A DNA stretch of 22,320 nt. It comes from a virus. How positions within the stretch are numbered: position 1 is the first letter of the stretch; each line of letters starts with the position of its first letter. The notes beneath the pieces were generated by a model, which saw only the letters and a program-made list of their open reading frames with translations, did not search any database and was not told the origin of the DNA. A program made the position numbers and the translations under genes. The DNA lies in the UHGV virus genome UHGV-2170153; one strand, given 5' to 3'. Below, one piece after another: positions 6,197 through 8,286 of the stretch.

Positions 6197-6490
6197 TCAG
6201 TCATTACTGATAGCGCCATAGCGTGAGCGGTAATTACGCAGGCGCGGGTCAATTTCAGGGAAGTGGGTATATGTGGCTTTGCGGAATGGTCGGATTGATG
6301 TCTGGTAAATTCGCTCGCGTTCTTCTTTCTCTGCAAGCCATATACAATGGCGAAATTCCTTTTCCTCTTTCGTTTCCTGCGGTAGCGACATTATCCGGTC
6401 GTAGTTTTTTCCGAATTTATCCAGCACCTCCAATACGGAATTGCCGGAACAGCGGCGCGGGTCATCCGCACCATACAGAGGCGCTGGCAT
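6197..6490 (-). CDS. Hypothetical phage protein (97 aa)
   Basis: ATG at 6490 with AGGAG 6 nt upstream; basic C-terminal half. Confidence 0.65.
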
Positions 6491-6506: not shown

Positions 6507-7054
6507 TTATTTAGCTAACTTTTTCCAGATCGCTGAAACGTATTTGGCTTGGTGAATGGCATCATCAAGCGCGTTGTGGCGAGTTCCTTTGAATGGCATA
6601 TCTCGCTTAGGGTCGAATCCTATTGCCTTCCCAAGTTCGACGATTGTTCTTACGTCGCGGTCATTCCACCACTGCCACGGAACTGGCTGCCCTGTCAGCG
6701 AATAACTGTTGCGGAGAATAACGCAGTCAAATGATGCTCCATTCCCCCAAACCTGAACGAATTTGTGGTTAGCGTTCTTTATGATGAATTCAGATAACCA
6801 TGAAAGAGCCGTTGAGAGCTCTTGAGTGTTGCTGGTTAGCGATTTTCTGGCTTCTTCACTCTGTTCCATCCACCATAAAATCGTTGAAGCGTCAGGACGC
6901 GCCCGATATCGCATTGATGACTCAAGCGAGATATTTACCGAGAACTCTTCTCCTGTTTCTCCGGTATTCGGGTCAAAGAATACCGCCCAATAGAAATAAC
7001 TGGCGCGTATGGCCCGTTGCCCATTGTTTCAAGGTCAACCATCAAGTGATTCAT
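6507..7054 (-). pseudogene. DnaQ-like (DEDDh) 3'-5' exonuclease interrupted by a frameshift at a G3/C3 homopolymer (~6983..6990)
   Basis: N-terminal 39-aa frame from ATG 7054 (RBS AAGGA) encodes Exo I motif MNHLMVDLETMGNGPYAPVISIG then stops; the rest (AVFFDPNTGE...GNGASFDCVIL...HNALDDAIHQAKYV) continues in the +1 frame with no start codon; one extra G would fuse the frames into ~178 aa. Confidence 0.7.
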
Positions 7055-7062
7055 GTAAGTCC

Positions 7063-7578
7063 TTAAATTGCGTGAATAGCGTGACGAGGGAAGGGGAGAG
7101 TTACTGGTGCAAAGGGGATGTCGTCGTCAAAATCCATAGGTGGTTCGCTGTGATTTCCCTGCTGCTGAGGTTGCTGTCTTTGTTGCTGACCATTATTTCG
7201 CTGAGGTGAAGACTGTTCATTGCCTCCTTGCTTGCCACCAAGCATTTGCATGGTTCCACCAACGCCCACGATGACTTCGGTAGTGAACCGATCCTGTCCG
7301 CTTTGATCCTGCCATTTTCTTGTCCGCAATTTGCCTTCAAGATAAACCTCAGAGCCTTTTCGCAGATATTCGCTGGCAATTTCTGCCAGTTTCCCGCTCA
7401 TTACCACGCGGTGCCACTCCGTCTGCTCCTTTTGCTCTCCAGTTTGCTTATCACGCCATTGTTCTGACGTAGCAACGGTAAGGTTTGCAAATGCCGTTCC
7501 TGATGGTGAATATCTGATTTCTGGATCATGCCCAAGGCGACCAATAATGATCACCTTATTTACGCCTCTGCTTGCCAT
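7063..7578 (-). CDS. ssb: Single-stranded DNA-binding protein (171 aa) with 15-aa extension past the conserved DDDIPF tip
   Basis: [59 protein letters not shown]... OB-fold core closely resembles E. coli SSB; ...[11 protein letters not shown] then continues [15 protein letters not shown] before TAA. Confidence 0.9.
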
Positions 7579-8286
7579 TTATGCCGCCTGTTTTAGCTCG
7601 TTAACTCTGATGTTCATTACCTGAACGCATTTAGCCTGCGCCTCCTCGTTTCCAGCCATTAATTGCCAGTCACGCTGATAACGCTCGATGAGTTTTTTCT
7701 TGTCAGTTTCTGTTGACGCATAATCGCTGAAGTCTTTCAGGATTTGTTCGCAGTCAACCGATGGAGATTTCTGGTTGGTATTTTCTGGTGATGGTTTGTT
7801 ATCTGATGCTGGGATTGCCCATCCCGGCAGTGATGGAGGGAGCCAGTAAAATCCTGTTCCATCCTTCAGTTTTGCCCTGTGCCACCCCTGCTTTTTATCG
7901 AGAGATGTTTGTGCGAAACCTTCCTCAAGGTTATACAGATACCGACCGATTCCCCACTGAACGGCAGCGCGCTTCATTGCACCGGAACGACCACCTTTGA
8001 CGGCTTCTACCTGCGTGTTTTCAGCAGCATCCCATTTGGTTACCCATTCGGAATCAATCTTTATTGATATGCCGCATTCAACGCCGCCGTTGTTGGGAAT
8101 ATCGCGGTATTCATTGCGCCATCCTGCTTTGCCGCAAACATCGTCCAGGCGTTTCATGATTGCCCGGTTCGTGACATAAGCCAGCACCATAGCCCACACT
8201 TTGCCATCGCGTGTTTTACCGCTTTGCTGTATTCGCCATTCGATATCTTCAGGGCTGAATGGCTCATCGAATTTATTCAAATCCAT
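7579..8286 (-). CDS. Rad52/Rad22-family single-strand annealing protein (235 aa)
   Basis: ATG at 8286 with GAGGTGA RBS; N-terminal pattern FSPEDIEWRIQQSGKTRDGKVWAMVLAYVTNRAIMKRLDDVCGKAGWRNEY matches Rad52-type SSAP signature (memory); sits in the lambda bet position next to ssb and exonuclease. Confidence 0.7.
   Translation of the reverse strand: MDLNKFDEPFSPEDIEWRIQQSGKTRDGKVWAMVLAYVTNRAIMKRLDDVCGKAGWRNEYRDIPNNGGVECGISIKIDSEWVTKWDAAENTQVEAVKGGRSGAMKRAAVQWGIGRYLYNLEEGFAQTSLDKKQGWHRAKLKDGTGFYWLPPSLPGWAIPASDNKPSPENTNQKSPSVDCEQILKDFSDYASTETDKKKLIERYQRDWQLMAGNEEAQAKCVQVMNIRVNELKQAA

Follow-up and report, generated by a model that had tools for sequence, protein, structure and literature searches.

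[quoted passage not shown] Placing one glycine after the tip (SSB+Gly) leaves no detectable chi binding and gives small colonies and impaired growth (PMC3045619), and the pockets of ExoI and RecQ hold both the side chain and the alpha-carboxylate of the tip Phe (PMC3159472). In the SSB of phage HK620 (HkaK), Sak4 is recruited by the extreme C-terminal residues, without which recombineering fails (Hutinet et al. 2018, PMC5928155). The "SSB-1" proteins of lambdoid recombination (Rec) modules were called unstudied in a 2025 survey of those modules, in which the extension described below is unmentioned (PMC12315714). Our literature search found no paper describing this extension, the string LPFPRH occurred in no searchable paper, and such an extension of phage and conjugative-element SSBs is apparently undescribed so far.

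The window, that is, the whole 22,320-nucleotide stretch of virus genome UHGV-2170153 that was analyzed, represents the early part of an HK97/N7/mEp235-like lambdoid prophage of mosaic make-up. Its ssb gene (7063..7578, minus strand, as are all genes and parts described here) has an ATG start and encodes a 171 amino acid protein of the SSB-1 type beginning MASRGVNKV, as judged from the ORF list, the translation, and Pfam and PDB matches. The OB-fold ssDNA-binding domain (residues 6-105; 7264..7563) matches PF00436 at 131 bits against a cutoff of 26, and residues 1-142 align to E. coli-type SSBs in the PDB with E=1e-66 and about 70% identity. A Gly/Gln/Pro-rich linker (about residues 113-145; 7144..7242), disordered by its composition and a pLDDT of about 30, leads to the conserved acidic tip (residues 146-156; 7111..7143), in which the DDDIPF codons occupy 7128..7111 and residues F150, D152, P155, and F156 are invariant across 38 aligned relatives. 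The OB fold, the linker, and D-D-D-I-P-F are those of a bacterial-type homotetrameric SSB, but the acidic motif is not the extreme C-terminus because 15 residues follow F156 (residues 157-171; 7066..7110). None of the solved SSBs found in a PDB sequence search extends past residue 156 of the window protein. The extension in the window is the modal sequence of the group of SSBs with capped tips, and it conforms to the pattern by which we define that group, 14-16 residues after ...IPF that match A-P-[VI]-[TG]-L-x-[FY]-P-x-x-hydrophobic-hydrophobic-x-x-[ILV]-COOH.

On direct reading, the TAA stop (7065..7063) overlaps the AAGGA ribosome-binding site of the next gene (7061..7065) within a Shine-Dalgarno-like TAAGGA, and the exo ATG (7054..7052) lies 5 nt further downstream. 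A sequence-only reading of this DNA had described 15 residues beyond DDDIPF before TAA, with the stop lying where the exonuclease ribosome-binding site sits; both observations proved correct, and 7063..7110 is exactly the extension plus its stop. The same overlap is seen in relatives, ahead of either exo or abc2. An AlphaFold2 model built from a 38-sequence alignment (mean pLDDT 50.7) gave a beta-barrel OB domain at modest confidence, and the linker, tip, and extension were predicted to be disordered, with pLDDT about 30. Between the Phe codon and the exo ATG (7111..7054), no stop interrupts the -1 frame with respect to ssb, and exo lies in that frame; in the absence of a proper slippery heptamer, this is probably due to chance. 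A programmed frameshift at CCC TTT G, an idea weighed on the sequence alone, was dropped for that reason and because it had no comparative support.

Four tightly packed genes make up the recombination module, and the same order is annotated in relatives, as for the SSB-1 type of lambdoid Rec module. The stop of a Rad52/Rad22-family single-strand annealing protein gene (7579..8286; PF04098, 91.9 bits) abuts the ssb start; ssb is followed by a gene for an Rv2179c-like (DnaQ-fold) 3'-5' exonuclease, exo (6507..7054), and the last gene is abc2 (6197..6490; PF11043, 206 bits), specifying an anti-RecBCD protein. The exo gene, whose intact orthologue scores 247.8 bits to PF16473, is disrupted by a 1-nt deletion at a GGG run (6986..6988) that is GGGG in all relatives. 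The deletion splits the 182 amino acid orthologue into a 39-codon N-terminal ORF (ATG at 7054) and a 135 amino acid ORF (6914..6507). It is private to the window: all 25 relatives have the intact 182 amino acid gene, and the frameshift is either a homopolymer sequencing error or genuine prophage decay. The recombination module was matched in 1030 of 5426 complete E. coli genomes, about a fifth, and the same 516-nt ssb is annotated in RefSeq in E. coli prophages (ET826, strain W). Two RefSeq assemblies labeled E. coli DH5alpha (hits H46 and H50) contain the prophage module at 98.7% identity, with the same score as E. coli W; this is unexpected for a K-12 derivative and may reflect strain mislabeling.

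The extension is widespread. Among 90 complete phage and prophage loci chosen by SSB homology alone, 65 have the same or nearly identical 15 residues. So do 116 of the 120 best-matching protein clusters (75-98% identity), which span Escherichia, Klebsiella, Salmonella, Citrobacter, and Enterobacter; the length is always 15 residues, and the pattern in the top clusters is [AS]P[VIL]TLPFPRH[ATV][IVM][HY][AV][IL]. The SSB cores of mEp235, epsilon34, and HK75 are only about 69% identical, yet their 15 residues are identical; ECP1 has an identical extension on a core about 95% identical, and two further loci (L092 and L093) encode an SSB 100% identical to the window protein. In ECP1, HK75, and CP-1639, there is no exo and abc2 directly follows ssb, and the extension is still present. 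The extension is thus a feature of ssb rather than of the exonuclease gene, and its link to the exo ribosome-binding site is incidental. A scan of viral contigs for the codons of MDFDDDIPF, whatever follows, returned 120 stretches, of which 73 stop at once and 47 (39%) run on for 14-15 residues; variants among the latter include AHPFLQYPELIHAI. The consensus of the extensions is A-P-[VI]-[TG]-L-x-[FY]-P-R-H-hydrophobic-I-x-x-I. Extended SSB genes adjoin either Rad52-type or Sak4-type (AAA_24) annealase genes, and they lie upstream of exo, abc2, or unrelated small genes.

More distant extensions of 15-16 residues, with a common A[IV][HY]x[IL] ending, were found in SSBs of integrative conjugative elements (ICEs): IGFGYDCSRVAIHAL, MGFGYGMAQSAVYCL, and LGHGYGICRKAIYAIS. 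Their N-terminal half is different ([ILM]G[FH]GY...), and the loci are from Chimaeribacter (L012), Cedecea (L065), and Trabulsiella (L076). In all three, the ssb neighbors include genes for TopB and an STY4534-family ICE replication protein, with PilL2 and a TIGR03759-family gene additionally confirmed for Cedecea and Chimaeribacter; these loci are PFGI-1-class ICEs. The hits of a GTDB scan with the SSB were for the most part canonically ending ssb genes of host chromosomes, and the only informative loci were these three and L013. Phage-type and ICE-type extended SSBs were recovered independently from a library of representatives at 50% identity, a noisy set with many frameshifted entries that provided only a few further examples. 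An IMG/VR contig (2850998136_000004; L228) has a related SSB-exo pair lacking exactly the 45 nt (...CCATTT followed directly by TAAGGACTGATATG). It has no endonuclease gene despite the missing 45 nt and represents either a precise loss or a pre-extension state; because the absence is exact, the extension behaves as a discrete 15-codon unit. One protein (P0119) combines the full extension with a tip of the recoded kind that goes with the endonuclease, MNFDDSDIPF, and may be an allele from which an HNH gene was precisely lost or a cleavage-immune unoccupied site.

Selection on the 45 nt was assessed by counting substitutions along a minimum spanning tree of the distinct sequences with Nei-Gojobori path counting. 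For the loci chosen by SSB homology, the extension has 19 synonymous and 6 non-synonymous changes (omega ~0.12, P=6e-7), compared with 170 and 80 for the OB domain (omega ~0.14, P=4e-52) and 65 and 27 for the first 50 exo codons (omega ~0.12, P=1e-22). For loci chosen by the tip codons only, the extension has 88.5 synonymous and 80.5 non-synonymous changes (omega ~0.33, P=2e-12). In a clade picked by its amino acid pattern, a selection that is partly circular, omega for the extension is 0.07. All of these counts are raw with respect to multiple hits and come from short sequences, and their direction is robust. These substitution patterns indicate that the peptide itself, not just the DNA, is constrained, and to a degree equal to that of the OB domain. 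We consider it close to certain that the extension is a real and conserved feature, under selection and native to ssb. Shared by 65 of 90 loci and evolving at omega ~0.12, it has neither the private lesion nor the neutral codons of a pseudogene or artifact. Two of the three origins initially suggested for the extension, stop codon loss and sequencing error, are thus rejected: phages, prophages, and ICEs that have diverged all keep the frame, length, and stop position, and the codons are under purifying selection. The same evidence supports the third, a deliberately altered SSB.

The other 25 of the 90 homology-selected loci stop right after the Phe. Twenty-three have an intact HNH gene at once downstream, one (phiKp_30) has a decayed HNH remnant, and one (L124) is cut by the contig end; all alleles of the clade ending in ...IPF with readable downstream DNA thus have an HNH gene or its remnant exactly after the Phe codon. 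Two unrelated HNH types occupy the ssb 3' end. The S135-type cassette (HNH_3 plus zf-His_Me_endon in Pfam) starts directly behind the TTT codon, taking the place of all DNA as far as abc2, and CP-1639, which has the same MNFDDEIPF tip plus the extension, is its uninterrupted counterpart. Ahead of the Sf6 gp26 type lies a recoded ssb tip, a terminal MNFDDSDIPF with many synonymous changes, and the end of the HNH ORF is in frame with extension codons 2-15 and retains the same stop. The junction reads ...GACGACGATATCCCCTTTGCACCAGTA... where unoccupied and ...GATTCGGATATTCCGTTCTAG... at the recoded site. The GenBank note on Sf6 gene 26 records, without explanation, 14 contiguous shared amino acids; gp26 and the extension have them in common because the HNH ORF reads into the old extension in frame. 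When 2.2 Mb of DNA was scanned for other ORFs ending in an extension-like motif, only the Sf6-type HNH was found. In Klebsiella phage phiKp_30 (L011), the remnant is a 204-nt sequence between ssb and exo (2694-2897) that keeps the 5' start and 3' tail of an Sf6-type HNH gene, the middle being deleted; the tail, no longer translated, has a clustered change from ATTCAC to GCATAT.

The gp26 family comprises 554 phage records, its homology ends at about residue 137, and gp26 is about 35% identical to the intron-encoded I-KsaII (Staphylococcus Kayvirus polA). Family members are found in Sf6 (L005, 1706-2185), Bas106 (L006), Vibrio D70 (L172), Klebsiella K54_rec2 (L173), and Pseudomonas PPpW-3 (L175). 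Those of D70, PPpW-3, and K54_rec2 lie directly after genes that terminate at tips (...DYSDDIPF, ...PPMDFDDQIPF, and ...DFDDDRS, respectively) and end about 10 residues past the last histidine, without an extension-like tail. On this evidence, the tail is native to ssb, and the HNH genes have invaded the most conserved piece of ssb DNA. Family membership and recurrent position together suggest that gp26-type genes are a homing-endonuclease lineage aimed at the ssb 3' end in unrelated phages. ES18 HNH and epsilon34 DnaQ-like genes were treated as probable Rec-module nucleases in the recent survey (PMC12315714), and both views may be valid. An origin of the extension as the scar of an HNH deletion was rejected: the tail is missing from HNH homologues elsewhere, homologous extensions occur on distant SSBs that have no HNH at all, and simple deletion does not convert one junction sequence into the other.

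We infer that the canonical ...IPF alleles of the clade are secondary, HNH insertion at the Phe/Ala junction having restored a free tip, and that capped and uncapped alleles coexist because homing endonucleases target the ssb 3' end. SSB orthologues with a stop immediately behind DDDIPF, which the sequence-only reading had thought could count against a genuine extension, do exist (Sf6, Bas106, S135); they appear, however, to be derived by homing-endonuclease insertion and not to represent an uncorrupted original. There is no HNH gene between ssb and exo in the window, and its ssb is an unoccupied, endonuclease-free allele.

We propose that the extension is an ancient, selectively maintained short linear motif that defines a subclass of mobile-element SSBs, present in lambdoid/P22-like recombination modules and PFGI-1-class ICEs. 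It would bury the tip Phe and remove its free alpha-carboxylate; ssDNA coating by the capped SSB would persist, and chi, ExoI, RecQ, PriA, and others would not dock on it canonically. Since SSB+Gly loses chi and the partner pockets read the Phe carboxylate, a 15-residue addition should block canonical docking, and masking of the tip with a predicted loss of host partners is a sound expectation from the published experiments. The new conserved hydrophobic C-terminus would be displayed and, presumably, recognized by some other partner, which may be a host protein. A constrained motif probably binds something because simple masking needs no conserved sequence. The alignments also argue against masking alone, as the acidic tip is as conserved as in host SSBs, which pure masking would leave unexplained; the predicted disorder of the tail is consistent with a linear motif.

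The neighboring annealase is unlikely to be the partner, because a 99-100% identical annealase sits beside both capped and uncapped SSBs and because extended SSBs are also found with the unrelated Sak4 type and in ICEs. Among the neighbors (Rad52- or Sak4-type annealase; exo, abc2, and others downstream), no gene that co-varies with the extension emerged. A host protein or SSB itself would be a more plausible reader than the annealase. The hexapeptide P-[VI]-[TG]-L-x-[FY] in the extension resembles the clamp-binding motif QLxLx[LF] (QLSLPL in Hda), and is a lead only. The extension is dispensable at least in the laboratory, as Sf6, S135, and Bas106 are viable without it.

We regard the specific mechanism, in which the tip is capped and the protein retargeted, as evenly balanced between right and wrong. 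Our best overall explanation, a native conserved extension that acts in this way and HNH-bearing alleles that are secondary, is somewhat probable as a whole. A broader proposal is more doubtful, though possible: that these proteins form a "stealth" or retargeted SSB class in Enterobacterales mobile elements, in which the cap turns the hub off for host enzymes and on for another reader, for which the beta sliding clamp would be a candidate given the resemblance to its binding motif, and homing endonucleases toggle the cap off. If this were true, element ssDNA coated by capped SSB would be handled differently from host ssDNA.

Other explanations can be weighed against capping and retargeting. 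The extension might be a regulatory tail, either a degron at the C-terminus or a pro-peptide removed by cleavage, so that the SSB is short-lived or becomes tip-competent only after processing. This would account for the conservation of both tip and extension, and the canonical form must be functional since the Phe-truncated alleles arising from endonuclease insertion are viable. The last five residues are also mostly non-polar (AIHAI, AIHAL, AVYCL) and are the portion that the ICE variants have in common with it; Parsell, Silber, and Sauer reportedly found in 1990 that non-polar C-termini are degradation signals in E. coli. However, the extension lacks a protease site and any known consensus for a degron (ssrA-like LAA and similar), and conservation is stronger over residues 2-10 (PVTLPFPRH; omega 0.19) than over the last five (omega 0.39), a pattern not expected of a simple C-terminal degron. 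We consider a regulatory tail unlikely.

Far less probable still is that the 45 nt are a genomic by-product, kept for translational coupling, mosaic-boundary recombination, or as a homing target, and that the peptide is irrelevant. Substitutions are overwhelmingly synonymous in frame (19 vs. 6 overall, and 7 of 7 in L142, where the stop is also kept), distant variants with quite different DNA keep the length and the amino acid pattern, and L228 has the same stop/ribosome-binding site arrangement without the 45 nt. These observations outweigh those that prompted the idea: the 45 nt are 100% identical among many phages whose flanks differ by 9-14%, the ssb stop overlaps the downstream ribosome-binding site in every context, the junction after the Phe codon is a recurrent point of recombination or insertion, and the HNH ORF retains the same stop. 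An artifact or a recent stop loss in this prophage, as part of a decaying element, might be suspected from the unique homopolymer frameshift in the adjacent exo, which does place errors or decay nearby. The chance of this is negligible: the same ORF end is shared by RefSeq genomes, phage isolates (epsilon34, mEp235, HK75, ECP1), and viral contigs from metagenomes, two of the loci encode the identical protein, and these comparative data already refute an artifact.

The capped proteins constitute a large natural class of SSB in which the tip is retained beneath a conserved peptide cap, and they are present in well-known phages (epsilon34, HK75, mEp235) and in conjugative elements. They provide a testable handle on how mobile elements tell their own ssDNA from that of the host. 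They bear on recombineering, in which portability is set by cognate SSB/annealase pairs, on phage-host conflict, and on the way homing endonucleases exploit the most conserved stretch of ssb. In annotation, extended ssb ORF ends should not be "corrected".

Several known systems can be compared directly with the window locus. The I-KsaII and HNH_3/zf-His_Me families account for the canonical-tip alleles, and such genes are absent from the window; the S135-type HNH matches HNH_3, and the repeated location of these genes suggests cleavage specificity for the ssb 3' end. The HK620 SSB provides a precedent for a phage SSB tail that recruits a specific recombination partner, but it is a distant, unrelated SSB and ends in NDYPPF, with a free aromatic terminus and no post-tip extension. 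Sf6 gp27, of the ES18-type SSB-1 proteins (Casjens et al.; PMC12315714), belongs to the same family, occupies the same slot between a Rad52-like annealase gene and a nuclease gene or abc2, and is 97% identical to the window SSB over residues 1-156; unlike the latter, it terminates at ...DSDIPF as a result of the HNH gene that follows its Phe codon. A post-tip extension is absent from the solved SSB structures and described families searched. In SSB+Gly (Naue et al. 2011, PMC3045619), the tip is likewise extended, there beyond Phe177, but that protein is a laboratory mutant with one added residue, whereas the window extension is natural, 15 residues long, conserved, and selected. The E. coli, bacterial, and plasmid SSBs resemble the window protein in their OB fold (PF00436), their disordered Gly/Gln/Pro linker, and an identical tip sequence; in the window, by contrast, the tip is followed by 15 conserved residues, and its Phe is without a free carboxylate.
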